Below are positions 520 through 62,700 of a stretch of DNA of 64,000 nucleotides, one piece after another. Location: positions 134,361 to 198,360 of the forward strand of contig DBXY01000022.1 of the NCBI GenBank assembly GCA_002309765.1, given 5' to 3'. This DNA is from Verrucomicrobia bacterium UBA1200. Its GTDB lineage: Bacteria > Verrucomicrobiota > Kiritimatiellia > RFP12 > UBA1067. Position 1 is the stretch's first letter. Every line of letters begins with the position of its first letter. The notes under the pieces are model-generated. The model did no database searches. It was not told the origin of the DNA and saw only the letters and a program-made list of their open reading frames with translations. The translations under genes were made by a program, and so were the position numbers.

Positions 520-867
520 ACGCACCTCTAACCAATTAAAAAACTCGAAAACTCCGGTCTACCTAAGCTTTATGATAAATAAACGATCAGGCATACTGTT
601 CATTGCCCGCCTGTCTGATTTTCAGTGAGACGGAAACGTTCTCACAAATATCGCCGCCGGCAAACGCAAGTAGAATGCGCCATTTTGCCGTCTACTATAA
701 TATGGCAATTATTTACGAAAATCAAGAATAGTTGCCATTCGCAATTATGCAAATCGTGATCAATATTGCTAATAATGTCAACCGGCAAACACCCAAGGCT
801 TGACCGATTCCGTATTTTTGCTATACTAATTATGATTTTTGTGGAAAAAAGCGAAAAGGAGATTGAG

Positions 868-2274
868 ATGAAAAGGCAAATGTTTTTTGCGTTGGCGGCA
901 ATAGGTATGGCGATGGCTTCATCGGCGGCGTATCAGGCGGGGTTCGCGCGGGTGGACACGGCACCTCCGTCGGGAATCCCTATACCCGGCTACTTTCATA
1001 AACGCGTGGCCGAAGGCACGCTAGACCCGATCTGCGTGGAATGCGTCGCCGTATCGGACGGGGAACACGCGGCACTAATCTATTCGGTTGACAACCTGCA
1101 CATCCCCAGTGTGTTCTTCAAACGCATCTTTCAAGAGATAACGGAGGCGACCGGGGTTTCGCGCGACCGGATATTTGTCCATTCGACGCACACCCACACC
1201 GGACCCACCGTTGGGACGCGCGACGCTTTTACGGAAGAGGAGAACCGATTGGCACGTGAGTATGCGGACAAGCTAATCAAACAGCTGGCGGAAACGGGCC
1301 GCGCGGCGCTTGAGGATTGCGCGCCGACAAAAATCGCCGCCGCAAAGACGGTCTGCACGGGCATTTCCGCCATCCGCCGTTACCGCATGAAGGACGGCTC
1401 GGTGCGGACAAATCCCGGCATCACGAATCCCAATGTGGAAGGTCCGCTCGGCACACCGGACGAGACGCTTCAGGTAATCCGCTTCAAGCGCACGGGCGCA
1501 CCCGACATCGCGATCGTCAATTTCGGTACCCATCCCGATACGGTCGGGGGAACGATGTATTCCGCCGACTGGCCGGGCGTGGTGCGCAAGACATTCGAGG
1601 CGGGCGTAGGTGACGGCGTAAAATGCCTCTTCCTCAACGCGGCGCAGGGTGACGTCAACCACCACATCCGCAATCCCTCGCCAGGGCGCGCGGCGCTCGC
1701 CCGCGCGGACATACACTTCCACATGGGTAGAGCCGTGGCCGGCGTGGCGATGGGCGTGTGGGATATCTGCGAGGAGATCCCGGACGGGCAGGTGCGCGGC
1801 GCGGTGACATCCGTTCGAATGCCGGCCAATGTGCCGACCGCCGACGAGATCAAATGGGTGGAGCTTTTCGACGCGGGAAAGAAGGAAGAGATTCCGCTCG
1901 GAAGCATGGAGATCATGACACTGACGAGTCCCGGTTCCCGCGTCCGAACCCTGCGGAACGGTCCCGACCACTTTGACATCCTGGTATCCTCCATCGCGAT
2001 CGGCGACTCGATCGCCTTCGCGGGTCTGCCGTGCGAACCGTTTGTCGATATCGGGCGCGACATCAAAGCGCAATCGCCATTCCGCACAACGATCATAAGC
2101 TGCCTCACCAACGGGGCGGAGGGATACATCCCTTCCACGAAAGCGCATCAGGAGGGCGGCTACGAAGGTCTATCCTCACGATTTGCGGCGGCGACGGGCG
2201 ACCGGTTAGTCGCCGCGCAGGTTGAGCAACTGAAGAGACTGTACAAAAATGAAGAAGCTAAATTAACGGAATAA
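868..2274 (+). CDS. neutral/alkaline ceramidase-like N-terminal-domain hydrolase, secreted
   Basis: Start trimmed to ATG 868 (MKRQMFFALAAIGMAMASSAA signal, preceded by AAAAGGAG). GFARVDTAPPSGIPIPGYF...DPICVECVAVSDG...SVDNL and HSTHTHTGP fit the bacterial neutral-ceramidase N-terminal domain pattern. Confidence 0.6.
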   Translation: MKRQMFFALAAIGMAMASSAAYQAGFARVDTAPPSGIPIPGYFHKRVAEGTLDPICVECVAVSDGEHAALIYSVDNLHIPSVFFKRIFQEITEATGVSRDRIFVHSTHTHTGPTVGTRDAFTEEENRLAREYADKLIKQLAETGRAALEDCAPTKIAAAKTVCTGISAIRRYRMKDGSVRTNPGITNPNVEGPLGTPDETLQVIRFKRTGAPDIAIVNFGTHPDTVGGTMYSADWPGVVRKTFEAGVGDGVKCLFLNAAQGDVNHHIRNPSPGRAALARADIHFHMGRAVAGVAMGVWDICEEIPDGQVRGAVTSVRMPANVPTADEIKWVELFDAGKKEEIPLGSMEIMTLTSPGSRVRTLRNGPDHFDILVSSIAIGDSIAFAGLPCEPFVDIGRDIKAQSPFRTTIISCLTNGAEGYIPSTKAHQEGGYEGLSSRFAAATGDRLVAAQVEQLKRLYKNEEAKLTE

Positions 2275-7640: not shown

Positions 7641-7669
7641 TTGACATCTGGGACCGTTTTCCCTACAAT
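7641..7669 (+). promoter_or_regulatory. sigma-70-type promoter candidate for the tandem propeller genes
   Basis: TTGACA (7641..7646), a 17-nt spacer, then TACAAT (7664..7669), about 70 nt upstream of ATG 7738. Confidence 0.55.
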
Positions 7670-7737: not shown

Positions 7738-10290
7738 ATGAGGATTGGTTTTATTGCATTCATAGCATTGGCGGCGGCGGCGTTCGGGGGTACTGAACCG
7801 ACCTCGCTCGACGAGGCGCTCGCCCTCTGCCGGCGCACATACGACTACGTGGCGAAGTCGCTGCCCGCAAATGAAGCACACCGGTTCAAGCAGGAGCTGG
7901 CAGTCGATGAGAAATGGGCCGCGGCGGCGAAGAGTCCGCAGGAGCGCGCGATAGTGGAGAAGGTGGTGCGCCGTCTCAGGCGTAGAATCCTGTTCGCCCA
8001 CCCTGACCTTCAGTTCGACCGACTCCTCTGCGTGCAGCGCGATGTGCCGTTCTCGCAGTTCAACCACATGGTGGACCAGTATCTCGGACGCTTCTCGCAC
8101 GCCGGCCCCGGCCTCGTGGTGCTGGAGAACTGGCGCACCTTCCCCGAGAAGAAGGTGCTACTCGCCGGCAAGCTGCCCGAAGGCTGCGTGCTCAATCCCG
8201 ATCTGCACTGGGACGCCGACCGCATCCTCTTCGCGTTCTGCGACCACACGCGTTCCCCCGAGGCCGATGCCGAGGCGCTCAAGGTGCCGAAGATCCTCGG
8301 CCCCAATGTACCCGAACGCCATCTCGTGCACCGCCGCTACTTCATCTACGAATGCGCGGCCGACGGTAGCTGGGTGCGCCAGCTCACGGGCGGCCCCGGC
8401 GACCCTATGGAGACCGTGGACGGCAGGCAGACGGTGATGATCGAGGACATCGACCCGTGCTATCTCCCCGACGGCGGCTTCCTCTTCTCGTCCACACGCT
8501 GCCAGACGTTCGGCCGATGCCACTGGGGACGCTACACGCCGAGCTTCCTCATGTACCGCGGCGAAGTGCCGCCCGTGGGAGCGTCCGCGCCGTTCGACTG
8601 CCATATTAGCCGCTTCTCCTTCGGTGAGGCGAACGAGTGGGAGCCTAGCGTGATGGACGACGGACGCATCGCCTACACGCGCTGGGACTACATAAACCGC
8701 AATTCCGCTCGCTTCCACTCGCTGTGGGCAGTGCGCCCCGACGGCACCGCCGTCTCCCACCTCTACGGCAACTGGTCGCGCAACATCACCGGATCGGCCG
8801 AAGTGAAGAGCGTGCCCGGCACGCACCTTCTCGTGGCCACCGCCACCGCGCACCACGCGATCACCGGCGGCTCGCTCTATCTCATCGACCCGCGCAAGGG
8901 CGAGGACGGGCTTGATCCCGTCACGCGCCTCACGCCGGAAATTCCTTTACCAGAGAGCGAAGGATGGAAGTTCCCCGGCTTCTACGCGGCCCCCATGCCG
9001 GTGAATGACACGCTTTTCTTCGCGAGCTACACGGACGATCCCGGCTGGTATCCGCCCGGCCACCCGCAGCATGTGAGCGGCATGGCCGCATGGCCCGAAT
9101 CCCGCTCCAGCGCGATATGGCTCGTCGACACGCTCGGCGGACGCGAACTCATCTACAAGGATCCCGCGTTCGGCACGTACAACCCAATCCCCATCGTTAA
9201 GCGCAAGAAGCCGCCCGTGCTCGCGTCCTCGCTTCCTCCCAACGCAGACGGCACCGGTGTCTGCTACGTGGAGAACTGCTACGACAGCCGTCATGGCATC
9301 CCCGCCGGATCGATCGCCGCCCTGCGCGTCAATCTTCTGCACGGGCTCACGATCGCTCAGCGCGAGACGCCCAGTCGGTACAACGATGTGGAGATTCACA
9401 AGGAGCCGCTCGGCACGGTGCCGGTGAACGCCGACGGCTCGGCCGCGTTCCGAATCCCGGCGGGCGTGCCGTTGCAACTGCAGGCCATCGACACAAACGG
9501 CATGGCCGTCCTGACCATGCGCAGCTTCATCTACTCGCAGAAGGGCGAAGTGCAGGGATGCACCGGCTGCCACGAGGACAAGCGAACCAGCCGTGCGGCG
9601 GTGCTCCGTCCCGAAGGCGTGAAGGTGCACGACATCAAACCCGAGGTTGACCTTGGCTACAAGGGGTGTTTCCGCTACGCGCTATCGGTGCAGCCGATCT
9701 TCGACCGCAAGTGCATATCCTGCCACGGCCTCGGCAAGGCACCGAGCTTCATTGGCGCGGAAGGGCACCACCGCCTTGTCAAGGACAGGCAGGTGGCGTT
9801 CATCCACGGCTATGCCGAGACGGACATTTCACGTCCGCACGACTACTTTGCCGCCGCGAGCGCGCTTACGAAGCGCCTGATGGCCGGGCACGGGCCGAAG
9901 CTCACGCCCGAGGAGTGGAGCACGCTGATTCTCTGGATGGACATGGGCGTGCCGGAGCATTCCATCGGCGGATACGGATGGAACCGTCCTGAGACGCGCG
10001 CCGTCGATCCCGAAGGCGAGAAGGCGCTGCGCGAGGCCGTCGCCGCGAAGGTAGGCGCGGAAGTGGCGGCGCAACCGTTCGACGCGCTCGTGAACCGCGG
10101 CGACGAGACGAAGAGCCGGGTGCTGTGGCTCTGCCGGGACGAAGACCGAGATGCGCTGCTGGCACTCTGCCGAAAGTCGCTCAAGCCGCACCCCGCTTCG
10201 GACATTCAGGGCACGTGCGGACGAGATGACGCGTGCGAGTGCCACAGCTGCTGGGTGCGCCGCGGCGGCTACAACAAGCCGAAGCGCTGA
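7738..10290 (+). CDS. secreted beta-propeller protein with C-terminal CxxCH motifs (HzsA-related / PSCyt-like), paralog 1
   Basis: Start trimmed to ATG 7738, with AGGAGG 6 nt upstream (MRIGFIAFIALAAAAFG signal). TRWDYINRN and GGSLYLIDPRKGEDG are TolB/PD40-like propeller blocks. CTGCH lies at 9559..9573 and CISCHGLGK at 9712.. . The Cys-rich tail is GTCGRDDACECHSCW. Confidence 0.7.
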   Translation: MRIGFIAFIALAAAAFGGTEPTSLDEALALCRRTYDYVAKSLPANEAHRFKQELAVDEKWAAAAKSPQERAIVEKVVRRLRRRILFAHPDLQFDRLLCVQRDVPFSQFNHMVDQYLGRFSHAGPGLVVLENWRTFPEKKVLLAGKLPEGCVLNPDLHWDADRILFAFCDHTRSPEADAEALKVPKILGPNVPERHLVHRRYFIYECAADGSWVRQLTGGPGDPMETVDGRQTVMIEDIDPCYLPDGGFLFSSTRCQTFGRCHWGRYTPSFLMYRGEVPPVGASAPFDCHISRFSFGEANEWEPSVMDDGRIAYTRWDYINRNSARFHSLWAVRPDGTAVSHLYGNWSRNITGSAEVKSVPGTHLLVATATAHHAITGGSLYLIDPRKGEDGLDPVTRLTPEIPLPESEGWKFPGFYAAPMPVNDTLFFASYTDDPGWYPPGHPQHVSGMAAWPESRSSAIWLVDTLGGRELIYKDPAFGTYNPIPIVKRKKPPVLASSLPPNADGTGVCYVENCYDSRHGIPAGSIAALRVNLLHGLTIAQRETPSRYNDVEIHKEPLGTVPVNADGSAAFRIPAGVPLQLQAIDTNGMAVLTMRSFIYSQKGEVQGCTGCHEDKRTSRAAVLRPEGVKVHDIKPEVDLGYKGCFRYALSVQPIFDRKCISCHGLGKAPSFIGAEGHHRLVKDRQVAFIHGYAETDISRPHDYFAAASALTKRLMAGHGPKLTPEEWSTLILWMDMGVPEHSIGGYGWNRPETRAVDPEGEKALREAVAAKVGAEVAAQPFDALVNRGDETKSRVLWLCRDEDRDALLALCRKSLKPHPASDIQGTCGRDDACECHSCWVRRGGYNKPKR

Positions 10291-10347
10291 TTTTGAAGGT
10301 CGCGTCTCGTAAATGGTTAGTGTGAAATTTCTAATTTTACCACCTTG
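10072..10347 (+). repeat. duplicated 3' end plus spacer, copy 1
   Basis: 10072..10313 is identical base for base to 12795..13036 (242 nt, checked by hand). 10315..10347 matches 13166..13198 with 2 mismatches. Confidence 0.9.
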
Positions 10348-10367
10348 ATAAAAAAAGCAGTGCGATT

Positions 10368-13013
10368 ATGAACATCAAAATCCTGTTCGTCGCGGTCGTC
10401 GCGACGGGATGCACGGCAGCCGCAGTCCTTCCGATGCCGGCGACAACGCCCGAGGAGATTATCGCCCTCGCGCACCGCACATACGACTATGTGGCGCAAA
10501 GCGTGCCCGAAAGGGAGTTAGCCGCACTTAAGGACGAGTTGGCCATTGACGAGGAGTGGTACGCAGACGCGAAGAAGGCGAACAACGCGCGCGAGATGCG
10601 CAACGCCGCGCGTGAGTTGAAGTCGGTGCGCCGCCGCATCCTTTTCAAGCACCCCGACCTCCAGTTCAAGCGGCTGCTCGCCGTGCAGCGCGGGTTGCCG
10701 TTCTCGCAGGAGTCCGGCACCACGGACCAGTACGCCGGTCGCTGGTCTCGTCCGGGACCGGGGCTAGTGGTGCTCGACAACTGGCAGGGGGCGCCACACA
10801 AGACGGTTCTCCTGAAGGATAAGCTTCCCTGGGGTACGGTACTCAATCCTGACCTCCACTGGGACGGCGACCGCGTCCTCTTCGCCTTCTGCGACCATAC
10901 GCGCAAGCCAGAGGCCGATCCGAAGGCGTGCGGCGCACCACCGGTGGTGAAGCTGGAGGACCAGCGCCTCGACTGGCTGCGGCGCGTCGATCCCGGCAAC
11001 CCGAACTTCGCGTCGCCGGACGGCCAGTTCTCCGTGATGCACCATCGCTACTTCATCTACGAGGCGGCGGCGGACGGCAGTTGGGTACGTCAGTTGACGG
11101 GCTGTCCCGGCGACTTGATGAAGACATGGGAAGGTCGGCAGACGATCCTGCTGGAGGATGCCGATCCGTGCTATCTGCCGGACGGGGGGGTTGTGTTTAA
11201 CTCCACGCGCTGCCAGACGATCGCCCGCTGCCACGGCGGCCGTTATGTGCCGGCGTGGCTTCTTTATCGCGCCGAGCTGCCGCCGCCCGGTGAGATCTGC
11301 GCGCGGGACATCCGCCAGCTCTCGTGGGGCGAGGCGAACGAATGGGAGCCGGCCGTGCTGAATGACGGGCGCATCTGCTACACGCGCTGGGACTACATAA
11401 ACCGGCATGCGGTGTGGTTCTCCAGCCTCTGGACCACGAAACCCGACGGCACAGCCGTTGGCCACTATTACGGTAACTACTCTAAGACCATCTTCACGAC
11501 AACCGAGGTGAAACCGATTCCCGGCTCACCGCTTGTTGTCGCCACCGCCGCGTCCCACCACCTCTTTTCAAGCGGCTCGCTCGTGCTGATCGACACGCGC
11601 AATGGTGAGGACGGCGAGGCGCCGCTCACGCGCCTCACGCCTGAGTGTCCCTTTCCCGAAGCGGAAGGCTGGAAGGGCAGCGGACTCTGGTGCGGACCGA
11701 TGCCCGTGAACGACACGCTGTTCTTCGCGTCCTACTCGCCGGACACGACGGAATACCCGGAGGGACATCCCCGCTTCCACTCGCACAGCTGGACGGCGGC
11801 GTGGCCAGACCCGCGCTCGTTCGGCGTGTGGCTCGTGGACACCCTCGGCGGGCGCGAACTCATCTACCAAGATCCCGAATGGAGCACGTTCAACCCGATC
11901 CCGCTCGTGAAGCGTCCAAAGCCGCCCGCGCTCGTCTCCACGCTGCCGCCCGCCGACAAGGCGCCGACGAGCGGTCTCTGCTATGTGGAGAACGTCTACG
12001 ACGCGCGCGTAGAGCTGCCGAAAGGGAGCGTGAAGGCATTGCGGATCAACCGGTTGTTCAACCAGGGACCGGTGCGCCACTGGTCGTGGAACCAAGGCGG
12101 AGACCTAGACATCTACAAAGAATCGCTCGGCACGGTGCCGGTGGCGGCGGACGGGTCGGCGGCGTTCCGCATCCCGGCCGAGATGCCGATCCAGCTCCAG
12201 GCGCTCGACAAGGACGGCATGGCGATCTACACGATGCGCTCGTTCATCTACGCGCAGAAGGGCGAGATCCAGGGCTGCACTGGTTGCCACGAAAACAAAA
12301 TGGCGAGCGTCGCGCCCGCGAAGATGCCTGCGGACCGTCATGTGTACGATCCCGTGCCAGAGGTGGATCTCGGCTATCACGGCCCGTTTAGCTATCCGCG
12401 CAGTATACAGCCGATTTTCGACCGCCACTGCATCTCCTGCCACGGACTCGGCAAGGCGCCGGACTTCATCGGCACGAACGGTATCCGCCGCCTCGTCAAG
12501 GACGGGCAGGTGTGCTTCGCGAAGTCCTACGCCGAGACGATCGAGTCGAAGCCCTACGATTACTTCGCGGCGCCGAGTCCGCTCACGAAGCGGCTCAAGG
12601 CGGGACACGGCGGCGCGAAGCTTTCGCCGGACGAGTGGAAGACACTGATCCTCTGGATGGACCTCAATGTACCGGAGTGGAACATCGGCGGCGGCTACAG
12701 CTGGAACCGTCCCGAACTGCGCGAGACAGACCCGGAAGGGGAGAAACGCCTGCGCGAAGCCGTCGCCGCGAATGTGGGCGCGGAAGTGGTGGCACAACCG
12801 TTCGACGCGCTCGTGAACCGCGGCGACGAGACGAAGAGCCGGGTGCTGTGGCTCTGCCGGGACGAAGACCGAGATGCGCTGCTGGCACTCTGCCGAAAGT
12901 CGCTCAAGCCGCACCCCGCTTCGGACATTCAGGGCACGTGCGGACGAGATGACGCGTGCGAGTGCCACAGCTGCTGGGTGCGCCGCGGCGGCTACAACAA
13001 GCCGAAGCGCTGA
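10368..13013 (+). CDS. secreted beta-propeller protein with C-terminal CxxCH motifs (HzsA-related / PSCyt-like), paralog 2
   Basis: Collinear with paralog 1: TRWDYINRH, GSLVLIDTRNGEDG, CTGCHENK, CISCHGLGK and an identical final ~73 aa. The N-terminus MNIKILFVAVVATGCTAAA is a signal peptide or lipobox-like. Confidence 0.7.
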   Translation: MNIKILFVAVVATGCTAAAVLPMPATTPEEIIALAHRTYDYVAQSVPERELAALKDELAIDEEWYADAKKANNAREMRNAARELKSVRRRILFKHPDLQFKRLLAVQRGLPFSQESGTTDQYAGRWSRPGPGLVVLDNWQGAPHKTVLLKDKLPWGTVLNPDLHWDGDRVLFAFCDHTRKPEADPKACGAPPVVKLEDQRLDWLRRVDPGNPNFASPDGQFSVMHHRYFIYEAAADGSWVRQLTGCPGDLMKTWEGRQTILLEDADPCYLPDGGVVFNSTRCQTIARCHGGRYVPAWLLYRAELPPPGEICARDIRQLSWGEANEWEPAVLNDGRICYTRWDYINRHAVWFSSLWTTKPDGTAVGHYYGNYSKTIFTTTEVKPIPGSPLVVATAASHHLFSSGSLVLIDTRNGEDGEAPLTRLTPECPFPEAEGWKGSGLWCGPMPVNDTLFFASYSPDTTEYPEGHPRFHSHSWTAAWPDPRSFGVWLVDTLGGRELIYQDPEWSTFNPIPLVKRPKPPALVSTLPPADKAPTSGLCYVENVYDARVELPKGSVKALRINRLFNQGPVRHWSWNQGGDLDIYKESLGTVPVAADGSAAFRIPAEMPIQLQALDKDGMAIYTMRSFIYAQKGEIQGCTGCHENKMASVAPAKMPADRHVYDPVPEVDLGYHGPFSYPRSIQPIFDRHCISCHGLGKAPDFIGTNGIRRLVKDGQVCFAKSYAETIESKPYDYFAAPSPLTKRLKAGHGGAKLSPDEWKTLILWMDLNVPEWNIGGGYSWNRPELRETDPEGEKRLREAVAANVGAEVVAQPFDALVNRGDETKSRVLWLCRDEDRDALLALCRKSLKPHPASDIQGTCGRDDACECHSCWVRRGGYNKPKR

Positions 13014-15379: not shown

Positions 15380-15541
15380 TCGCGCATAGCAAACTTATTT
15401 GATTGTATTTCACCCGCCTTTTTGATAAATTATTAGCATTTTGTGGAAATGGTGGGGAAGGTTGGTCGATAATCTTTTCATTTAAGGGTTATTGCCATCT
15501 GCTATCTGTCATTGTCGATTACGAACGAAAAGGGAAATGCT

Positions 15542-18500
15542 ATGACGATAAAAAAGTGGGTTGCAATTGCCGTATTTTGTGCGGCATTTTTATCTGGTGC
15601 GGCGTTTGCCGATACCATTTACTCGCCGGGTGGCCAAGGATGGGGCGCGGCGCTTACAGTTGGCAACGGCGAAACCGTCGTGATCGATGCGGGCGATGCC
15701 GCAAACGTATGGTCTGGTGCCGTCACGGTCGAAGCGGGCGGTATTCTCAAGACGCGCGGCAAGCTCTCAATCATGGGTGTCGCCACGGTGAAGACCGGGG
15801 CCACGCTTGACGTCGAGAGCGGCACGTCCTTCATCGCATTCAATTCACGCACCGCGACCGGCACCACGATCGTCCGCTCCGGCGCGACGCTGGAGCTCAA
15901 CCGTTCTGACGCCTTCAACTACTCCAACGGCTTCATCCTCCATGTGTACGGCACGCTTGCTTGCGCTGGAAACCGCATATCAGTCGACAGTACGGACCAC
16001 ATCTACATCCACGACGGCGCGCTCATCACCGGCGCGGGCGACGGCAACGGCATCATCGACGTGTTCAAGGCCGACACCCGCATCGTGGTCGATGGCGAGA
16101 GCGTGATAGACGGGCCAATCAAGGCGCGTTTCACAGATGCGGCACTCAACATCGCCTGTTGCGAGAACGCACACCCGTATTTCAAGGGCGGATTCATCTA
16201 CGGCACATCCTCCAACGGCAAGGGCAACATCGTCCAGGTGGCCGCCACGGTTGACGAAGGCAATGCCTCGGGAACGTGCGTAAACGCCGTCATCGAGATC
16301 GGCCCCAGCACCGGTCAGGGCAAGTTCGTGTTCACTTCGAAGGGCATCGTGCATCTCGCGGGCGATACGCAGTCCTATTCCGTCGAGACGACCGGCGCGG
16401 AGCTAGATATCGTCGCCGAGAAATCAGTCGCTGGCGAATGGCACGCTGCCGTGCAGACGCTTCCCGCAATCACCACTTCCACCGCCACTGTATACCTGAA
16501 GGGTGACGGCGTGGTGGCTCTCCAAAGCGCCGCGCCCGCTTACCCGATTGCGTTCGCCGGCGCCACGCTTCAGATCGACTCCGGCTCTCCCGTGGCTCTC
16601 GCGGCCGGCTCTTCAGTGACGGCCGACACGCTGGTGGGCGTTGACGGTCTTGCCGCGAACACGGCGGCCACGCTCTTCACCGGTGCCGCAGCCGACTTCG
16701 ACGTCTCTAAGGTCACCGCCGCCGCCATGCACAACGGCATTACGATCTCGGCTCCCACCGCCACAGCGCTTGACGGCGCCAGCGTGACAATCGCAGGCCT
16801 GCCCGCGTACGACGCCTCCGCGTGGATTGAGCCTTTCATCCGCGCCAAGGGCCTCATCTGGTTGGACGCTTCGGACGCAGCGAACTTCGTGTTCAAGGAC
16901 AACACCTTCGGCCTCGTTCAGACCTGGAAGGATCGCACCACGTACCACCGCGACGCATCGTTCTACACGTCGCCCGCGCCAGACAAGTACTCCCGCAACT
17001 ACGGCGAGTACGGCATCTCGGCCGGCGTCCCCGCGTTCCTAATGGGCGCGACCGGCAGCAGCATCGACCTGAAGTACACCCGCATGACGAACATACGCAC
17101 CATCTTCTGGGTGATGGCCGTCGAGCAGGACGCCAACGCCTGGTTCCTCGGCGATTCTGGGGTCTACCGTTTCCACCGCACAACCACGCTTGCGTACGCA
17201 TACGACAACAGCAACGTCTATTTCAAAAACGGCAGTATCTACTGTGACGGCGCGAAGGTAAATAATCCCGTATCTGACATTCCCCCGACCGATCGCCACG
17301 TGTATTCCACTGTCAACACGTCGAACAACATGGAGAGCGACTACCTCACCAGCGATGTCCGCGACTCCAATATGGCAGCCGCACGTTCGGGCGGACGCGA
17401 CATCTCGGAGCTAATCGCGTTCGACTTCGCGATGTCCGACGCCGACCGCGAGGCCATCGAGGCGTATCTTGCAGCGAAATGGATGGGCGCCAGCCCGTCC
17501 GCGGCCGGAGTTAACGGCACATACAAGTTCACCGGCGAAGCGACAGTTGACGGTTCGCTCAGCGGCGACAAGAATCTCGTGTTCGCCGAAAGCGCTTCGA
17601 TCTCGATTGTAAATCCCAGCTCCGAAGACTCAATGCTCAAAACGACCGGCACGATGGAGCTTCCCGCAGGCGCGGCGTTGCCCATTACGGTGGACGCGCG
17701 TTCGCTCATGCCCGGCACGTACACGGTCATCGAGACGACGGGCGGAATCACGTCGCTTGACCAGTTTGCGGCGACGGCGCAGATTGCAGGCGGAGTCTCG
17801 GCGACGTTCTTCGTGGCCGACGGATGCCTTAAGATGACGATCACTTCCACCACAACCGCCACGCTGCAAACGTGGCGCCCGCAGAGCGCGACCGACCTCG
17901 GTTGGAACGCGACGAGCGAAAACTGGCTGCTCACCGGGGGCGACGTAATGAGTGGATTCTTGAACTTCGTGCCGGTTTTGTTCGACGGCAACGAGACGGT
18001 CTCGGGTCCCGTGGAGGTGACTGGCGAGCACACGATGGGCCCGCTCAACGTCACCGGAAACAAGGACTACACGTTCACGGGTGACGGCGCACTTCTGGGA
18101 GCAGAACCCATCACTCTCGGCGGTTCGGGCACGATAACGTTGAACGGGCCAAGCCTGGGCGATCAGGAGATCGTGATCGACGCCGGGCGGAAGGTCGTGC
18201 TCGGCGAAAACGCATCCGAAAGCTCTCTTGGCACTGACAGCGGATCCACCGGCGGCAAGGTGACGGTGAGAGAGGGCGGCCAGTTCAACGCCAACTACCT
18301 CGAGACCACGGCCGTCAACACGGCACCGCGTGCCGAGCTGACACACCGCAAGACGTTCGTCATCGCGGGCGACGGTCCCGACGGACGCGGCGCGTTCATC
18401 AACGACGCCCTCGACGGGCGCACTGTGCACGACACGGTCTGGGCCTCGGTACTAAGGCGCGTCGAGCTCTCCGGCGACGCGACAATCGGCGGCGTGGACC

Positions 18501-21500
18501 GCTTCGACGTGCGCGACCGCGTGGGCACCACGGGCACCGCGACGCCTGGCATCTACGGTCCCGATAAGAAGCTCACCATCAAGACCACCGGCTGGTTCGG
18601 CCTAATCAACCATCCGATCGAGGTCGGAAGCATGCTGATCACAGACGGCGGCGTGTTCCGTCCCGAAGGAGTCGGCGAGGCGAAGTTCACAATCCCCGGC
18701 GGCATAACGCTCGACAACGGCACGCTCCACTGCTTCAGCAGCGCGTTCCCCGCCGACATCGCCTTCATCGTGGAGGCCGGCGGCGGCCAGTTCAACGCCC
18801 AAAGCGGTAACACAACGATCAAGGGCCCCGTCACACTGAAAGAAGGCGCTGCGCTTGAACTCGCCGGATCGGGTACGGGATATTCAGTCACCTATTCGGG
18901 TGGAATGAACGTGGCTTCTGGAACGGTGAAGACGACCGGCGGCAGGCACAACCTTGCGAGTCCGTATGACGGAACTGTCATTACCCAAGCCGGTGCCGAC
19001 ACTTATCTCGCCAACGGATTCGTTTCGGGCGATCTCGAGGTGACTCACACTTCCGGCGGATTCTTCCTTCAGGAGGGATCGAAGGCCGGAACGATCAACG
19101 TGACACATTCGGGAGGTTCGGTCGGCATCCTTGCGGCAAACAATCCGGCGCCGGAGTTCACCGCGCTCAACATCACCTCCACAGGCGGCGCGATCGACCT
19201 GCGTCCGCAAACGGCGGGCGAGCTTGACCTAGCGGGGCCGTTGAACGTCAGCCAAAGCGCAGGAAACATCTACGTTTACGGTCCCAACAACAACGACGAA
19301 TACGGTATCGCAATGAAGATGACCGGTTCCGCTGCGACGCTCTCGGTCGGACTCAACTCGAACCGTCCGGGCAAATTGCGCCTCAAAGCGGGTACCGACC
19401 TCACGGTCAATAACCTTTATCTTGCCGAAGCAGGCAGCAAGCCGTGCCGCGGTCATCTGATAATCGATCAAGGCGCAAAGGTCAAGGTAACGGGAGGTTT
19501 GAGAAACGGACACTGGCAGACTGCGCCGGATAAAGCGGCGACACACACCATTGACATCTGTGGCGAACTCGATGCGACGGGCATCAACGTGGCCAATCCA
19601 TGGGATTCGCCGCGCTCCGAGATTTATGTCAGGCCCGGCGCAGTGTTTAAGGCCAACGGATTCTACACCCGTTCCAACTATCCCTACGGTAACGGCGTGG
19701 ACGCGGGCGATGGCCGTCAGTGGCTCATGATGGAGGGCGGCAGGCTCGAGCTTGGCAGCTACGGCTTCAACGGCCACACGATTCCCGGCGTGGCCAAAGT
19801 TGACTTCCAGAACGGCGAGATCGTCAATGTTTCGTCCGCATGGGGCGGCGTGCAGGGCTTCCCGGTGTTCTTCGGCTATGACAAGCTCGGCGGCAGCGTT
19901 GTGTTCGACATGGACGAATACTATGTCAACTGGAACCAGGCACTTTCCGGCTCAAGTGACCTTACAATCAAGGGATCCGTCAACTTCACGGGCGCACGCG
20001 TGGATGACAGAATGCAGGGTGTCACGCTTGGAAAGCTCACGATTGAAAATACCGGCGGCAACGATCTTCGCGTGACCTCGGCCTTCTCCGGCGGACTGAC
20101 GCTGGCGGACGGCGTGAATGCGCAGGTAGCCAAGTATTCCGACGAACGTTACATGTGCGCCGTGGCTGCGGATGGTGCACAGGACAATGCGGCCGCAAGC
20201 AATTGGAGCTATCCGTTCGCCTCATCGGACTTCTTCCCGTTCATAAACCGCTACTACAGCACCCAGGCGCGTTCGAACCTTGCCACGCTCGGACGCGGCG
20301 AGTTCTACGTGCCGGAGGACAAGGCGGGCGTGTGGACATTCGTGGGCAACTACGACGACAAGATCCGCATGGACGTGGACGGTGCGCAGGTGTTCAAGAC
20401 CACATCCTGGAGCGCCATGGGCAAAGGGCAGGTTGAGCTTGCGGCCGGCTGGCACAAGTTCACGATCGCGGTCTATGCCGGCGGACAGCCCGGCGGACCC
20501 TCCAACTCCGGATTCAAGAACCGCATGGCCGTGGGCTATCTGCCTTCTGCCTCCGACTCCACGAACGGCAACGACTACACTCCGTTCATGCCCGGCGGCG
20601 AGCTGCAGATACGTCCGTGTGTCAACGCCTGCGTGTGGAGCTGGCAGAACGGCAACGCCAACTGGGACACGACCGAGAACTGGGCGCACATCAAGTGCAT
20701 GGACTCGACGAAGTTCATGCACACTAGCGGAGACTCCGACAATGCCAACGACTGGAAGAGCTACTTCTCCGGCAAGGCCAGCAAGATCAACGGCTGGTTC
20801 AAGGTCGAGCCTGGGAAAGAGGGCGAGTGGACGTTCAAGATGGCGTACGACGACTACAAGATGGTCACCATCGATGGCGAGACGCTCTTCAGCAAGACAT
20901 CCCAGTGGTATGACGTGTACGCGGGTAAGAAGGAACTTGAGGTGGGTTGGCACCGCTGGGAGATCCGCTTCGGCGACGGCTCTGGCGGATGGGGTCCGGC
21001 GAAGTATAACGGCGTGTTCATAAACGACGGCAACACGCTCAGCTTCATCGAGCCAGGCAGCACCGAGAACAAACAGTGGAACGAGGACAACATCAAGCTT
21101 GCGGCCACGCTCGGTGATATCGCAGTGCTGGAACCGACCGGCATCTATAAGGAACTGGAGCTTTGCGAAGGTTCCACGCTAACTTCCACCGGTACGATGG
21201 CAATGCCAATCTTCGGTACGCTAAAGGGTACCGGTACGCTCGCGGGCGACTTCGCATTTGAAGGCGATGTCAACTGCTGGGACGTCACCGGCGAAGCAGC
21301 CAACAAAGAGCTGGCAAGGGTGACTTTCGCCAATGCATCTGCAAACACTTTTGCCGGGCTTAAGTCCGTCAAGGCAACCTTCGATGGCAAACCGCGGGTA
21401 TCCACCTACTTCCTCACGGATGCCGTGTCAGGTCTAACGGACGGCGTGGTTGAAGATGTCGCCGTTACCGCGACTTACGGCACTACGGACGTCTCTGAAG

Positions 21501-52561: not shown

Positions 52562-53314
52562 ATGAATCTTAAACGAATGAACAAAGGACTCGACTTCCTG
52601 CGCGGGAAGTACGGAGCAAAAAAAGGCGAAATCACCATTAAGGACGGGCACTGCTATGTTGGGGCAACGCCACTCCTGCCGGGCCGAATGGAACGTAAGA
52701 TCGTCGAGTTAAAGAAAATGACGGAAAACGGGACGCTCGAAGGCGTCTCCACTTTGCGTTTTGCCGCCTTCGCGCCCAAAGGGACGGACTTGGAGGCGAT
52801 GCTGGCGAAGGAACTGGATCTCGCCGCCTACCTCGGCGCATCGGACATCGTGCGCGTAATGGCCGTCGCAAACGGGAACGCGATTAACGTGCTGGCGAAA
52901 CTCGCGAACGATGTCAACGTCTCGGTCGAGATCGGCGCGGGACTCCCGAAGGGAGAGTCCGGCTATGACCGTCACGAGATCATCGCCAAGCGCGGCGTCG
53001 CCTGCGACCAGACCGTTGACACGCACACCCCGCACTCGTCAATCCGGTGCTGGGGCGCTAAGGGGACTGACGACTTCACCGATGTCGATACCGAACTGTT
53101 CGGGCTGACTTACGAAGAGATTTGGAACGTTCGCGCCGCGTTTGCGCTATTGCAGGGACGCGCCTCCGCGAAAATCTGGAAAGCCGCATGGGCCAAAGCA
53201 ACGAAAGCCGCCGCGCTCGCCTTTGAAAGCGATCGCAAGAAAGCGGCAAAGGCCATTGCAGTCAAGCAGGGCTTGAACACTAACGAGGCCATCAAAACAT
53301 CGGAGGTGCGCTAA
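52562..53314 (+). CDS. hypothetical protein resembling a Gfo/Idh/MocA C-terminal domain without the Rossmann N-terminus
   Basis: No GxGxxG N-terminal region. The central part loosely resembles the oxidoreductase C-terminal alpha/beta domain. TAATG overlap with the next gene. Confidence 0.4.
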   Translation: MNLKRMNKGLDFLRGKYGAKKGEITIKDGHCYVGATPLLPGRMERKIVELKKMTENGTLEGVSTLRFAAFAPKGTDLEAMLAKELDLAAYLGASDIVRVMAVANGNAINVLAKLANDVNVSVEIGAGLPKGESGYDRHEIIAKRGVACDQTVDTHTPHSSIRCWGAKGTDDFTDVDTELFGLTYEEIWNVRAAFALLQGRASAKIWKAAWAKATKAAALAFESDRKKAAKAIAVKQGLNTNEAIKTSEVR

Positions 53315-54503: not shown

Positions 54504-57374
54504 TTACTTTAATTCAGTCCAATCCAGCGCCCAATATTTGCGGTCGATCTGATACGGATCCATTGAGGGGGAACTTTCGCTGTCCGGAGGAAGCACCCCG
54601 TAACGCACCATCTCGCGGACATACTCGGGCTTGGGCGCAAAACCGGGCATATCGAACCTTTTAACTGTTTCGAGGACCTTCTTGCCATCCTCGATCATCG
54701 CCAAAAGCGCCTGATATCCAGGGTCGTCTTTCGATGCGAACACCGCACTACCGTCAGCATTTTTGCACAAACCCAATCCCCCCGCCTCGCGTGCCAACGG
54801 CGCCCGCAGATAGACGGACTTTTCCGGCCGGGACAAATTGAAAAGCGTGTGGCGGTGGTAGGTTTTCAGCCGGGGATCGTTCCAATCCGGCGTCCAAAAA
54901 CTGATGCCGTTTTCATCCGACAGCGCATGCGGGACCCGCTTCGCGCCGGAATGGCAACAGTCGCAACGGCTGGTGATGGTCGGTTTAGCGGCCACCGTCG
55001 CGGCCCGAACGGTGTCGTTGTTCACAATCTGCTTGTTCTGCATATATCCGCCGATAGAGCCGCATCCCAGCGCGGCGTAGGTGCCGGGATAAGGCGCGGA
55101 ACCGTCCAGCCACTGCATAATAACGCGCCGCTCCGCCGGGGTAACCTCAACCCCGTGGTGCCGTCCGGAGATTTTTTCCATCAATGGACTGCCGCCGCTA
55201 CCCCGGGCGTATGGCGGCCAATCGCTCTTTTCGGAGTTGCGCCCGTCATACACCTGATTGTGGGAAATGAGGCTGTAATACGACATCGAAAACATTACGC
55301 CATGGTCGCCGCACAAATCGACGCCGCCTTTCCGGCTGTCCGGATTGTGGCATTTCACGCACGCCCGGTCCAAGATCGGCTGCATGTCGCGCGGGAAATC
55401 GGGGACGTCAAATGCGAGGCCGGAGGCGTCAAGCTCCGACGGCGCACGCGAAAGAGCCTTGGAGACCGTTACGGTCCGACGAACTGCATTGTCGGTCTTT
55501 ATTTCGTGGCACCCCACGCAACCCAGCTTCTCGCCCGGCATCACCTGCGTGAAGCTTTGCATCCGTTTTACGGCCCGCCCGTCGCCGTCCAGCGCAACGA
55601 AGAAGAGCGACTTCAACGCCGGCGCCCGGAAATACGCGCTCCCGTCGTCTTCAACCGGAACCGTGCCCAGCAGTCTGGTTAGCGTGAAGGTGCCGCCATA
55701 GGTTAGCGGATCCATCCCGCCGGTGTAATTGATCGGCTTCGGAAGACTTTCCATAACCATAAGTTTTTTCACCGTCCCCGGTTTCACGCCCTGCATGCTG
55801 CGGCTGGTGAGGACATTCTCAAGATAAAACTCGCCGGTTTTGGACGTAAGGTCGGTGCGGTCGGCATGCAGTTCCTCGCGAGAATGCGCTAACAGCGGAC
55901 GCGGCTCACTGATCTGCGAGCCAGCGGGTGCGCCTTCGAACTGCGTGAACTCTCTGGGCATGTCAAAGAGCTTTAGCGTTTTTCCGGCTCGGTTCATCAG
56001 GAAAACTTCATCCCCGGTCGTGGCCATAAACAACTCGGGAGAGAATGCCCAAGGGTCATAACAGCGCACCTTCGAGAGTTGCCGGATATTCCCCCGGTTG
56101 TCCGTCCCGGATTTCGTTGAGAGCAGACTGAGATATCCGCCGTGCTCGAAACTCCCGTGCCCGGGCGAATCGATCAATATCACCTCATCTGAACCTGGCA
56201 CCGGTTTGGCGTCAATATACACGCTGCCGGGATAGGTGTTGCCCTGATACACCTGATGCTGCGTTCCGTCCTGATTCATTGTCCAAAGATGGTGGAACGT
56301 CACCTGGCGGCGATCGACATACTCCCAGCGCATATACAGAATGCGCCCGTCGGGCAGCAGCCAAGGAGTGTTGTCGTGCTCGATGTTCGCGGAGAGCATC
56401 CGGATGCCGGTCCCATCCGGACGCATGCGGTAGATGTTGGCCACCTGCGTGAGCCAGCAGTTCACCCAACGCCGGCAGCGCGACGAAACAAACACGATAT
56501 CGCCATCGGGAAGCCAAGCCGGCTCTATATCGTCATACTCGCCGAAGGTAAGCTGTTTCAGCCCCGTGCCGTCGGAATTGATGGTGTAAAGGTGGTAGCG
56601 TACATCGTTTCCCGGCCGGTACGAAAAGAGAATCGTGCGACCATCGTAATGTACGCACGGATCGCGTACCGCACCCGCCAAATCTTCCAAAATTACGCGG
56701 AACGACTGGGTCTTGATATTGTACGCCACCAATCTTCCCTGCCGATTCAGGATCGTCCAATCCCGCGCATAACAGTAATATCCGAAATTAGCGTACCAGT
56801 GTTCCCGCGTGTGGGTGCGCGTGGCGAAAACTATCTCGTCCACCTTCCCGAAATCCCCGGCAAGCAGTTTGTCGTAAAGCGTTCCGACGGCCGGTACCTT
56901 GTCTTCTTCGGGTTGTTCCGGCGGCTTATCGGTGTTGTAGAACGTCATGCTGTCGAGGTTGACCGGGAGCGAGGGGGCGACAATCCGGAGCCGCGCCCCC
57001 TCCGGGACGGAGAACTTCGCCAGATAACTGCTCATCGTGTGGTAATCGCCAGAATCAGGGAACTCCACATCGCCCAGATGGGTATCGCCGTCGAAGAACT
57101 GAAGCCGCGCCTTCTTCCCGTTGCTTTGCGTCCCATAGGAGAAGAGAATCCACTTCGCGGCGGGTACTTTGGCGTATTGCACACCCCGCCCTTCCTGAAA
57201 GTAGGCCAAAATCGCGCCGCCGGAGGCGTTGGCGATCTTGGTATAGACCTCCGCCTTCTTTCCGTCTGGTGCCGGCAATATCGTCCCGCTTTCGGCCTCA
57301 ATCTTTGTCTGGGCAATTACCGAACCGGCACACGCCAAACCAAGCAAAAGCGTATAAAGCAATCTGTTTTTCAT
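54504..57374 (-). CDS. secreted CBM-like + beta-propeller protein with three C-terminal CxxCH motifs (HzsA-related / PSCyt-like), paralog 3
   Basis: ATG 57374 forms an ATGA overlap with the hydE stop. The signal is KNRLLYTLLLGLACAGSVIA. The N-terminal KIEAESGTI...GARLRIV is CBM6/35-like. MRWEYVDRRQ is a propeller block. The heme-type motifs are CVGCHE, CVKCHNPDSRKGGVDL (PSCyt1-like) and CDCCH. Confidence 0.7.
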   Translation of the reverse strand: MKNRLLYTLLLGLACAGSVIAQTKIEAESGTILPAPDGKKAEVYTKIANASGGAILAYFQEGRGVQYAKVPAAKWILFSYGTQSNGKKARLQFFDGDTHLGDVEFPDSGDYHTMSSYLAKFSVPEGARLRIVAPSLPVNLDSMTFYNTDKPPEQPEEDKVPAVGTLYDKLLAGDFGKVDEIVFATRTHTREHWYANFGYYCYARDWTILNRQGRLVAYNIKTQSFRVILEDLAGAVRDPCVHYDGRTILFSYRPGNDVRYHLYTINSDGTGLKQLTFGEYDDIEPAWLPDGDIVFVSSRCRRWVNCWLTQVANIYRMRPDGTGIRMLSANIEHDNTPWLLPDGRILYMRWEYVDRRQVTFHHLWTMNQDGTQHQVYQGNTYPGSVYIDAKPVPGSDEVILIDSPGHGSFEHGGYLSLLSTKSGTDNRGNIRQLSKVRCYDPWAFSPELFMATTGDEVFLMNRAGKTLKLFDMPREFTQFEGAPAGSQISEPRPLLAHSREELHADRTDLTSKTGEFYLENVLTSRSMQGVKPGTVKKLMVMESLPKPINYTGGMDPLTYGGTFTLTRLLGTVPVEDDGSAYFRAPALKSLFFVALDGDGRAVKRMQSFTQVMPGEKLGCVGCHEIKTDNAVRRTVTVSKALSRAPSELDASGLAFDVPDFPRDMQPILDRACVKCHNPDSRKGGVDLCGDHGVMFSMSYYSLISHNQVYDGRNSEKSDWPPYARGSGGSPLMEKISGRHHGVEVTPAERRVIMQWLDGSAPYPGTYAALGCGSIGGYMQNKQIVNNDTVRAATVAAKPTITSRCDCCHSGAKRVPHALSDENGISFWTPDWNDPRLKTYHRHTLFNLSRPEKSVYLRAPLAREAGGLGLCKNADGSAVFASKDDPGYQALLAMIEDGKKVLETVKRFDMPGFAPKPEYVREMVRYGVLPPDSESSPSMDPYQIDRKYWALDWTELK

Positions 57375-58471
57375 AAGCATCCCCCGTCTTGTCTCTTTTT
57401 GTAATGGCGGCTATCCCCGTATTGACCGTATAACACCGTTTCCCCGATCGACTCTAGACGGCTCTCAAGGCAACCCTTGCACATGCCGGCATTTTCGTTG
57501 AGGCACGGCTTGCCGGCGTAGAGCTGGTAGCTCCGGCGGTACCTGACATCCGTGATGTTCGGCATTATCACATTCGCCCCGGCCATAACCCCGCGTTCCC
57601 GTCCGTCCTCCGCAAGCGCCTGCAACGCGGTGGCGGCGGCAATGTTCACATCGTGAAGATACAGCCGTGTCACGGCTATCATCTTTAGCCCCATAAGCAA
57701 CCGCTCTTCGGTGGTCACGTGTCCGGCTTCCTGTCCCAACGGCGTTTGTTCATGCGGTATGTAAGGTCCCATGCCGATCATGTCCACGTCCATTCTCGCG
57801 TAAAACTCGATGTCGCGCGCAAGGTCGGCCAGCGTCTGGCCCGGCAGCATGCACATCACCCCGGTGCCGACCTGGTACCCGGTTCTGCGCAACGCCCGAA
57901 GACACTCCACCCGCCGTGCCCAATCGCACTCCGCCGGATGGATCCGGGCGTAAAGCTCCGGGTTCGAGGTTTCGATGCGCAGCAGATAGCGGGACGCGCC
58001 TGCCGCCTTCCATCGGGCGTAAACCGATTCTTCCTGTTCCCCGAGCGAAAGCGTCACCCCAAGGTTGAGGTGCCGGATCCGTTCCAAAACGTTTTCGATA
58101 AACGCCGTATGGGATTCGCTTTCGATCTCGCCGCTTTGGATAACCAGCGAGGCATACCCGAGGGCTTTGGATTCTTCCGCCGCCGCGACGATCTCGTCCG
58201 CGGAAAGCGAATAACGGGTGACCGCGGCGTTTGATTTTCTGATCCCGCAATAGAAGCAATCCTTGGCGCACGTGTTGCCCGCTTCGACCAAACCGCGCAT
58301 CGCGATGCCTTTGCCGCAGCATTTGAGTTTCAGTTTCCGGGCGGCGTCAAACATTCGCGACAGTTCTTCCGGATCCTCGACGCCCAACAGCGTCTCCAGC
58401 TCCGCCAACGCCAGGTTTTGCGGATGTTCAACGGCTTTCGCCATAATTGTCGCTATCGTGTCGCTCATCAA
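57371..58471 (-). CDS. hydE: HydE-like radical SAM protein ([FeFe]-hydrogenase maturase HydE family)
   Basis: CAKDCFYCGIRKSN (CxxxCxxC), LSLGE, WKAAGASRYLLRIETSN, GVMCMLPGQT and MIGMGPYIPH match the HydE block pattern as I recall it. They do not match BioB (CPEDCKYC). Confidence 0.65.
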   Translation of the reverse strand: MMSDTIATIMAKAVEHPQNLALAELETLLGVEDPEELSRMFDAARKLKLKCCGKGIAMRGLVEAGNTCAKDCFYCGIRKSNAAVTRYSLSADEIVAAAEESKALGYASLVIQSGEIESESHTAFIENVLERIRHLNLGVTLSLGEQEESVYARWKAAGASRYLLRIETSNPELYARIHPAECDWARRVECLRALRRTGYQVGTGVMCMLPGQTLADLARDIEFYARMDVDMIGMGPYIPHEQTPLGQEAGHVTTEERLLMGLKMIAVTRLYLHDVNIAAATALQALAEDGRERGVMAGANVIMPNITDVRYRRSYQLYAGKPCLNENAGMCKGCLESRLESIGETVLYGQYGDSRHYKKRQDGGCL

Positions 58472-61485: not shown

Positions 61486-61521
61486 AAAAACTCCTCTTTG
61501 CGTTAAGGGATGGTCCAGCGT

Positions 61522-62583: not shown

Positions 62584-62700
62584 TGTTTACTCCTAAAACG
62601 GGTTGCTGAAAAAAATCGTGCGGGATTTTACCACATTGCGGGTAAAATTTTCCAGCAAAAAAAGCTGGTCCGGGCCTTCGGTCTTGACGGGAGCCTAGGT

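Follow-up and report, generated by a model that had tools for sequence, protein, structure and literature searches.

What do exported propeller proteins with heme attachment motifs do in a rumen bacterium that encodes them in many copies? The question is raised by a 64,000-nt stretch of Verrucomicrobia bacterium UBA1200 (GenBank assembly GCA_002309765.1, contig DBXY01000022.1, positions 134,361 to 198,360 of the forward strand), which was analyzed at its full length and is referred to here as the window. Its source is a rumen-type member of the Kiritimatiellae, whose nearest relatives are metagenome-assembled genomes (MAGs) from sheep, goat, and cattle rumen. An earlier note, made by a model from the letters of this DNA, had singled out three paralogous genes, designated here P1, P2, and P3, as relatives of HzsA, the alpha subunit of hydrazine synthase (HZS), and had speculated about redox chemistry on glycans. 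Our follow-up indicates that their products are very probably exported c-type heme proteins, homologous to HzsA and functionally distinct from it. With a probability of about one half, we further propose that they act as lectin-targeted periplasmic heme oxidoreductases on glycan-derived substrates, with heme 1 and a propeller site as the reactive center and heme 2 as a relay. The three open reading frames (ORFs) are as follows:

7738..10290, plus strand: P1, ORF of 850 aa with its start ATG at 7738; HZS_alpha (PF18582) match at E = 1.3e-18; built of an N-terminal helical region, a TolB-type propeller, the HZS_alpha middle domain, a cytochrome c domain, and a Cys-rich tail
10368..13013, plus strand: P2, ORF of 881 aa, HzsA-like diheme protein; PF18582 match at E = 3.8e-20
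54504..57380, minus strand: P3, ORF of 958 aa with three CxxCH motifs; PF18582 match at E = 1.1e-20 and PD40 match at E = 2e-6

Kinship of P1, P2, and P3 with HzsA

The genes lie where the earlier note had placed them, with the adjustment that the P3 frame reaches position 57380, the start taken before being a second in-frame ATG at 57374; a GTG also precedes the start ATG of P1, at 7711. The announced signal peptide, helical N-terminal region (seen in the P2 model), propeller, and CxxCH motifs were borne out, and the RWDY/RWEY and LIDxxxGEDG-type blocks quoted from the proteins were found in them. Export signals were judged by eye from the translations, without a predictor: the P1 N terminus carries a Sec-type signal (MRIGFIAFIALAAAAFGG), and P2 and P3 carry lipobox-like signals (VATGC and LGLAC, respectively). 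All three proteins exceeded the gathering cutoff of the Pfam HZS_alpha model (26.6 bits), with 67.8, 72.7, and 74.5 bits for P1, P2, and P3, respectively; generic Pfam cytochrome c models stayed below threshold in all of them. The additional label of PSCyt-like proteins did not hold, as PSCyt1 (PF07635; cutoff, 22 bits) reached a subthreshold 15.5 bits in P3 (E = 0.028) and had no match in P1 or P2. The middle domains, the heme motifs, and a P3 module reminiscent of carbohydrate-binding module (CBM) family 6 map as follows:

9397..9576, plus strand: P1, matched part of the HZS_alpha middle domain (Pfam), ending in CTGCH
9559-9573, plus strand: P1, heme motif 1, CTGCH (motif search)
9712..9726, plus strand: P1, heme motif 2, CISCH (motif), in the column of HzsA Cys685/His689
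12024..12293, plus strand: P2, HZS_alpha middle domain (Pfam), holding the invariant M623, E633, and CTGCH
12276-12290, plus strand: P2, heme motif 1, CTGCH (motif search)
12429..12443, plus strand: P2, heme motif 2, CISCH (motif search and alignment)
55503..55778, minus strand: P3, HZS_alpha middle domain (Pfam), ending in CVGCH
55506-55520, minus strand: P3, heme motif 1, CVGCH (motif search)
55347..55361, minus strand: P3, heme motif 2, CVKCH (motif search)
54951..54965, minus strand: P3, third heme motif, CDCCH, invariant in the P3 subfamily
56931..57311, minus strand: P3, N-terminal beta-sandwich, CBM6-like by fold only

The suspected kinship with HzsA held over the whole length of the proteins. 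AlphaFold models of P2 (predicted local distance difference test [pLDDT] 83; predicted template modeling score [pTM] 0.84) and P3 (pLDDT 76) retrieved HzsA of Kuenenia stuttgartiensis (5C2V chain A) as the best Foldseek match, over 867 columns at E = 1.4e-23 and 771 columns at E = 6.7e-25, respectively, i.e., in the range of 1e-23 to 1e-25 and with the same order of three domains. TolB propellers ranked next for both models, and the P2 model displays a helical N-terminal bundle (helices in residues 28-92) plus the propeller. For the propeller alone, TolB/PD40 and Tricorn-type propellers were the best structural match (Foldseek E of ∼1e-10 to 1e-12), in keeping with PD40 and Tricorn_N matches in Pfam; they differ from the window proteins in having neither heme domains nor the invariant Cys/Arg-Trp-x-Tyr/His set described below. 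Sequence searches identified 5C2V_A as the sole solved relative, with local HMMER matches that are colinear from the propeller to the C terminus.

Residue-level comparison relied on true HzsA genes taken from anammox genomes (1518 to 1606 bits on NF052339, the HzsA equivalog model), one of which (L117) was aligned by MAFFT with the 13 HZS_alpha paralogs of the genome. CxxCH motifs 1 and 2 occupy exactly the HzsA columns Cys583/His587 and Cys685/His689, which hold hemes alpha-I and alpha-II; the earlier proposal to check whether these motifs are placed for heme was thus answered positively by the alignment. HzsA and the paralogs also have in common a W-x-D close to the C terminus (HzsA Trp787/Asp789), and in the paralogs the near-invariant histidine of GH(H)G is offset by one column from the distal His772 of HzsA, at a point where the alignment is imprecise. 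As judged from alignments and models, P1, P2, and P3 are full-length HzsA homologs, beyond the middle domain, with the predicted three-domain HzsA build, i.e., a six-blade-type TolB-like propeller, a heme-binding middle domain, and a C-terminal cytochrome c domain.

Divergence from hydrazine synthase

By their sequences, these HzsA homologs are not hydrazine synthases, because their equivalog scores lie below the cutoff, HzsA residues Tyr591 and Cys303 are absent, and the beta-gamma-like gene of the genome is unlinked. On NF052339, whose curated cutoff is 800 bits, P1, P2, and P3 reached only 39.3, 52.8, and 74.7 bits, i.e., 10 to 20 times less than required, at 15 to 18% identity to HzsA. In HzsA, Tyr591 is the iron ligand of heme alpha-I, Cys303 binds zinc together with His587, and His772 is the distal ligand of the bis-His heme alpha-II. 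Across the 13 paralogs, various residues (M/R/T/V/N/S/H/E) stand opposite Tyr591, and Cys303 is matched by a gap or T. None of the 13 alpha-like genes, those of the window included, has an adjoining beta or gamma gene. A single beta-gamma-like gene was found in the genome, with no second copy, on a contig other than that of the window (C12:27871-29748; L012:7872-9749, plus strand; NF052342, E = 4e-35); it adjoins rtcR/rtcA/rtcB and housekeeping genes and encodes a YncE-type propeller with a MauG/CCP-like diheme domain. Compared with HzsA, the window proteins have in addition the N-terminal helical bundle, a CBM-like module, a Cys-rich tail and, in P3, a third heme motif, and the hosts differ as well, HzsA coming from an anammox bacterium and the present proteins from a rumen fermenter.

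Hagglund et al. 2025 reached the same conclusion for other non-anammox HzsA homologs (PMC12758564), distant alpha homologs that form clades I to IV and come from Planctomycetota, Desulfobacterota, and other groups. Like the window proteins, those homologs have the canonical heme 1 pocket, lack key HZS residues, and are of unconfirmed function; indeed, no HzsA homolog has an experimentally confirmed function (PMC12758564), in agreement with the statement of the earlier note that this family is without a demonstrated one. That study chose alpha genes co-located with beta-gamma genes, often together with an FG-GAP/CRTAC1 gene, and its clades II and III lack heme alpha-II. By comparison, the window genes stand alone, keep both heme motifs, belong to a set of 13 copies, and have relatives on branches with sugar-binding modules, which are not discussed in PMC12758564. 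This kind of protein is already known, as a Pfam domain and from the 2025 paper (PMC12758564), and functionally uncharacterized. New here are the 13-copy case in a rumen fermenter, the quantified sugar-binding fusions, the perfect co-occurrence with CcsA, and a family-specific set of residues not shared by HzsA.

Predicted heme attachment

Both CxxCH motifs are invariant in 13/13 paralogs of the genome at identities of 24 to 34%, and a conservation pattern of this kind in such divergent sequences is far beyond chance. The machinery for covalent attachment is encoded as well: cytochrome c maturation, whose absence the earlier note had named as an argument against heme, is represented by a System II pair on C20 that consists of a ResB-like protein of 238 aa and a CcsA protein of 261 aa. 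Further heme-related genes of the genome specify HemB (on C57), for tetrapyrrole synthesis, and multiheme cytochromes with 7 and 9 CxxCH motifs, and the genome is thus equipped both to produce heme c and to attach it. In a sample of 201 genomes of the phylum, CcsA was present in 43/43 HZS_alpha-positive genomes versus 78/158 genomes lacking the domain (Fisher p = 8e-12, without phylogenetic correction). Covalent heme attachment in P1, P2, and P3 is thus plausible. The ResB-like/CcsA pair is itself unusually small and lies directly 3′ of the lipoyl synthase gene lipA (C20, ∼76.0 to 78.1 kb; L001:596-2100).

A family-specific residue set predicted to lie beside heme 1

Besides the CxxCH residues, Cys288, Arg340, Trp341, Tyr343, Asp360, Met623, and Glu633 (P2 numbering) are invariant in the 13 paralogs, and His397/398 and Glu642 are nearly so. 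Most of this set persists in 46 distant representatives of the family, in which no variation is seen at the propeller Cys, Trp, Tyr, and first His or at one Glu, and very little at the Arg and second His. HzsA, in contrast, differs: at the columns of Cys288/Arg340/Trp341/Tyr343/His398/Met623/Glu633 it carries Phe/Ser/Val/Ala/Met/Gly/His, respectively. According to the strand order of the P2 model, the family-specific propeller residues map to three successive blades, in their B-C or D-A loops. In the standard propeller topology, B-C and D-A loops share one face, and from these two premises we infer that the residues may form a single functional site on one face of the propeller, adjoining the heme 1 domain. 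We also considered whether P2 Cys288 corresponds to the zinc-binding Cys303 of HzsA and rejected this equivalence, since Cys288 pairs with HzsA Phe206 and a gap stands opposite Cys303. HMMER local alignments and the MAFFT alignment differ by one blade; the MAFFT register was used, as it agrees with how the anchors on either side are spaced.

Paralogs, family size, and sugar-binding modules

The 13 HZS_alpha paralogs are spread over nine contigs and are anciently diverged, P1 and P2 (65% identity) being the only recent-looking pair among otherwise old duplicates. Their accessory modules vary and comprise CBM6, NPCBM plus a domain with the fold of formylglycine-generating enzyme (FGE), discoidin plus FGE-fold, FGE-fold alone, and LamG plus a CE2_N-like module and a third cytochrome. 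For P3, the CBM6/35-like N-terminal module announced by the earlier note received support from the fold and none from the sequence. The module had no Pfam CBM match at E ≤ 0.1 and only spurious matches to designed repeat proteins among PDB sequences, whereas Foldseek aligned the P3 model with the GH5-CBM6 protein CtXyl5A (5LA2/5G56) over 149 columns (root mean square deviation, 3.0 to 3.7 Å; 19% identity; E of ∼2e-6), a match that the length of the alignment would assign to the N-terminal module. This module recurs in the closest P3 orthologs only; more distant relatives carry PL4 domain III (PF14683) and the NCBI name "polysaccharide lyase family protein," and some P2 relatives carry PF06439 or F5/8C (discoidin) modules.

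These fusions are not a peculiarity of one genome. A profile search of 1.84 billion representative sequences returned 6474 clusters (50% identity) at E ≤ 1e-3 and 1758 at E ≤ 1e-30. In an even sample of 46 family members, HZS_alpha was present in 45, and about a third had a recognized sugar-binding module, namely F5/8C (8 members), NedA-like galactose-binding (7), NPCBM (6), or CBM_AftD (1), with possible overlap between these counts. Sugar-binding fusion as a family-wide trait is thus supported at the level of domain composition. The family occurs in 43 of the 201 genomes of the phylum, some of which hold at least 23 copies, and also in Planctomycetota, Lentisphaerota, Anaerolineales, Armatimonadota, and Bacteroides thetaiotaomicron, the last with a single homolog. 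It is therefore a large family, multiplied in polysaccharide-degrading bacteria of the Planctomycetes-Verrucomicrobia-Chlamydiae (PVC) group and found in gut Bacteroides, with no member of known function.

One type of fusion is particularly widespread. The combination of NPCBM, HzsA-like core, and FGE-fold defines a very large family (>3800 matches), annotated as SUMF1/EgtB/PvdO family enzymes, which keeps ∼50% identity across Kiritimatiellae, Phycisphaerae, and Planctomycetes. Three paralogs of the present genome end in an FGE-sulfatase-fold domain (C16:49185-52724, C42:30620-34699, and C56:5299-9015). Their C termini (VRGGSFASRPRDG, VRGGSWYSRPKLA, and VRGGSWYRRPVVS in C16, C42, and C56, respectively) contain RGGSW/F...R and no Cys, so that the catalytic copper-binding cysteine pair of FGE is absent. 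We consequently discarded FGE-type sulfatase maturation as the function, the window genes, moreover, having no such domain. A published puzzle (PMC6388578) is the abundance of FGE-domain genes in this class, paradoxical for strict anaerobes; the Cys-less tails do not resolve it by themselves.

Proposed function in glycan redox chemistry

The proposed reading combines these observations in a single scheme. P1, P2, and P3 would be exported and be either periplasmic or lipid anchored, and the accessory lectin-type module (CBM6-like in P3; CBM6, NPCBM, discoidin, or LamG in other paralogs) would target the protein to a glycan or glycoconjugate. A substrate would be bound or transformed at the propeller-face site beside heme 1, which in P2 would comprise Cys288, Glu325, Arg340-Trp341-x-Tyr343, and His397/398. 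Heme 1 would be canonically ligated by His641, with the invariant Met623 and Glu633 and the near-invariant Glu642 close by, and heme 2 is probably bis-His ligated, by His692 and the GH(H)G histidine that adjoins the HzsA His772 column. From there, single electrons could be relayed to or from periplasmic cytochromes, e.g., a nine-heme NrfH-like protein linking to the quinone pool. Redox chemistry on glycans, as the earlier note had imagined it, is still a hypothesis deduced from domain architecture.

There are precedents for such a layout. Fungal AA12 pyranose dehydrogenase with its cytochrome domain and CBM1, quinohemoprotein alcohol dehydrogenases, and cytochrome cd1 nitrite reductase all combine a propeller as catalytic module with one or more cytochromes and, optionally, CBMs. 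The design logic is alike, with the difference that the propeller of the window proteins is of the TolB/PD40 type; none of these families gave a sequence or fold match among the Foldseek top matches listed, and no sign of pyrroloquinoline quinone or heme d1 was seen. If oxygen-free glycan redox chemistry were confirmed for the family, it would represent a new enzyme class for anaerobic carbohydrate breakdown in the rumen, the gut, and sediments and would show the kind of protein from which hydrazine synthase evolved.

A bolder generalization, which we regard as doubtful, is that the non-anammox HZS_alpha superfamily as a whole constitutes a large, unrecognized class of carbohydrate-active "auxiliary activity" enzymes, i.e., exported, lectin-targeted heme oxidoreductases that act on complex glycans or glycoconjugates themselves in oxygen-independent redox reactions. 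The propeller Cys, Trp/Tyr, and His would then supply a protein-derived cofactor or a metal site, and the two hemes c would wire it to the respiratory chain; in that event, the 13-fold expansion would point to an as yet unknown route of anaerobic polysaccharide breakdown.

Gene neighborhoods and other points against the proposal

Several observations weigh against glycan oxidoreductases, the first group of which comes from gene neighborhoods. A glycan degradation neighborhood, claimed by the earlier note, does exist in the window: 5′ of P1, on the other strand, lie genes for an exo-glucosaminidase-like GH2 enzyme that has a malectin domain and for a SASA-type esterase. P1 and P2 are followed 3′ by cysK and an ABC ATPase gene, and P3 is flanked by a sugar kinase/SIS/Gfo-Idh-MocA block and by hydE. 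It is not conserved even in the closest relatives, and the GH2/SASA, HydE, and Gfo/Idh/MocA neighbors are not kept with the P2 and P3 orthologs. The 13 paralog loci share no neighbor families, and in 79 related loci sulfatase (12 loci) and Gfo/Idh/MocA (9 loci) genes occur at about chance level for these sulfatase-rich genomes; the other recurrent neighbors, DUF1080 and GH10 (3 loci each), are likewise near background. With no shared families and neighbors near background, a conserved neighborhood was rejected as a functional clue. In other Kiritimatiellae, genes of this family often have additional paralogs next to them in tandem.

The most suggestive locus lies elsewhere in the genome (C43:31448-45258; L002:3449-17259, minus strand). 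There, an operon-like array, all on one strand and with HzsA-like paralogs at both ends, encodes a CBM6-bearing paralog, a Gluconate_2-dh3 small subunit, a GMC flavoprotein, a nine-heme NrfH-like membrane cytochrome, a 1388-aa protein without a family match, and a second HzsA-like paralog. It holds the only GMC/Gluconate_2-dh3 set of the genome. The triad was detected in 2 of 121 genomes of the class, and in the other carrier, a related genome, no HzsA-like gene was detected in the 20 kb covered around the triad. A link between triad and paralogs was dropped on these grounds and kept only as a hint of possible electron partners; the locus shows no more than that the organism has periplasmic sugar oxidation wired to cytochromes.

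The remaining points concern physiology and structure. The organism looks like a fermenter, with enzymes of the pyruvate:ferredoxin and indolepyruvate:ferredoxin oxidoreductase (PFOR/IOR) type and HydE, so that periplasmic oxidations would lack an evident electron sink. P1 and P2 have no recognizable sugar-binding module. The AlphaFold models hold no cofactor, heme itself being predicted from motifs, and the loop after CxxCH 1 is of low confidence (P2 residues 638-650; pLDDT <50). Clustering of the invariant residues near heme 1 is likewise deduced from strand order and topology.

The hydE gene (57371-58471, minus strand) deserves separate mention, as its stop overlaps the start region of P3. 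HydE is a maturase of [FeFe]-hydrogenase. We considered whether this radical SAM protein could serve as a maturase of P3 and abandoned the idea, as it is a bona fide HydE (TIGR03956, 327.5 bits versus a cutoff of 254.6 bits) and the adjacency is found only within the genus.

Alternative explanations

According to a first alternative, the proteins are noncatalytic electron carriers or scaffolds, e.g., an electron sink of a fermenter, whose diheme unit does no more than pass electrons on, either periplasmically or at the surface of the cell, and whose propeller and lectin modules serve as tethers to glycans of the envelope or matrix or to protein partners. Heme 2 does resemble a bis-His relay heme, propellers of the TolB type are classically binders of proteins, a dehydrogenase and multiheme cytochrome set lies between two of the paralogs, and P1 and P2 lack sugar-binding modules. 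Yet 13 paralogs with swapped substrate-type modules and an invariant polar/aromatic propeller set resemble an enzyme family more than a shuttle, and the domain housing heme 1 is the catalytic one in HzsA, so that we consider mere carriers unlikely. Should they be carriers after all, they would still be the proteins that cytochrome c maturation mainly serves in this supposed fermenter, whose energy metabolism would then have to be read differently.

Binding of peptides or unfolded proteins by the propeller, as known from TolB, Tricorn, and DPP-type propellers, leads to a second scenario, in which exported (glyco)proteins are oxidized or otherwise modified, e.g., in an oxygen-independent maturation in the periplasm for which the paralogs fused to an FGE-fold would be the clearest case. 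Tricorn_N and PD40 matches fit such a role, as do the FGE-fold in three paralogs and in the family of >3800 matches and the abundance of FGE-domain genes in strict anaerobes of the class (PMC6388578). However, the fused FGE-folds lack the catalytic cysteine pair, the same FGE-fused proteins also bear NPCBM or discoidin modules, and P1, P2, and P3 have no FGE-fold domain, which together make this scenario improbable.

Nitrogen oxide or hydroxylamine chemistry as in hydrazine synthase, e.g., detoxification of NO or NH2OH in the rumen, could be argued from HzsA being the only characterized homolog and from the one beta-gamma-like protein of the genome. This reading appears largely refuted already by the sequence data, and we hold it to be very improbable: equivalog scores are 39 to 75 versus 800 bits, Tyr591 and Cys303 are not conserved, the single beta-gamma-like gene is found on a different contig, in the company of RtcAB and housekeeping genes, sugar-binding fusions are ill-suited to a small nitrogen substrate, and the published analysis of other homologs agrees (PMC12758564). 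Finally, the CxxCH motifs might form disulfides or metal sites in plain lectin/propeller proteins without heme. In favor of this reading, heme is predicted here from motifs and Pfam cytochrome c models stay below threshold; against it, both motifs are invariant in all paralogs and nearly so family-wide, align with crystallographically proven heme sites, and belong to a family in perfect co-occurrence with CcsA, and we hold it to be scarcely credible.

Other ORFs of the window and features of the P1-P2 tandem

Outside these genes and their neighborhoods, a 2022-aa ORF at 15512-21580 (plus strand) has no Pfam match at E ≤ 0.001 and encodes a repetitive sequence with a high content of Gly, Thr, and Ala; its product is possibly surface adhesin-like and, by eye, may have an export signal. 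Four further ORFs, of 211 to 733 aa, are likewise without a Pfam match at this threshold (766-2274, plus strand; 52562-53314, plus strand; 59942-60577, minus strand; and 61510-63711, plus strand), and those at 766-2274 and 52562-53314 had no NCBIfam match either.

Two features concern the P1-P2 tandem itself:

7641..7669, plus strand: promoter-like site TTGACA-17-TACAAT, 11/12 matches, by consensus match only; sigma-70-like, called strong, ∼70 nt 5′ of P1
9966..10265, plus strand: 3′ segment of P1, with 92% DNA identity to P2 positions 12689-12988 versus 72 to 79% elsewhere

P1 and P2, both on the plus strand, are separated by a gap of 77 nt in which no terminator-like site was found, and they are therefore probably cotranscribed. 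The 300-nt tract of 92% identity at their 3′ ends looks like the outcome of gene conversion. It encodes an identical C-terminal tail of ∼70 aa ending in GTCGRDDACECHSCWVRRGGYNKPKR, with the motif C-x5-C-x-C-H-x-C-W, whose four Cys and Trp are invariant in the P2 subfamily. Possible structures for this Cys-rich tail are a metal knuckle and a disulfide knot.

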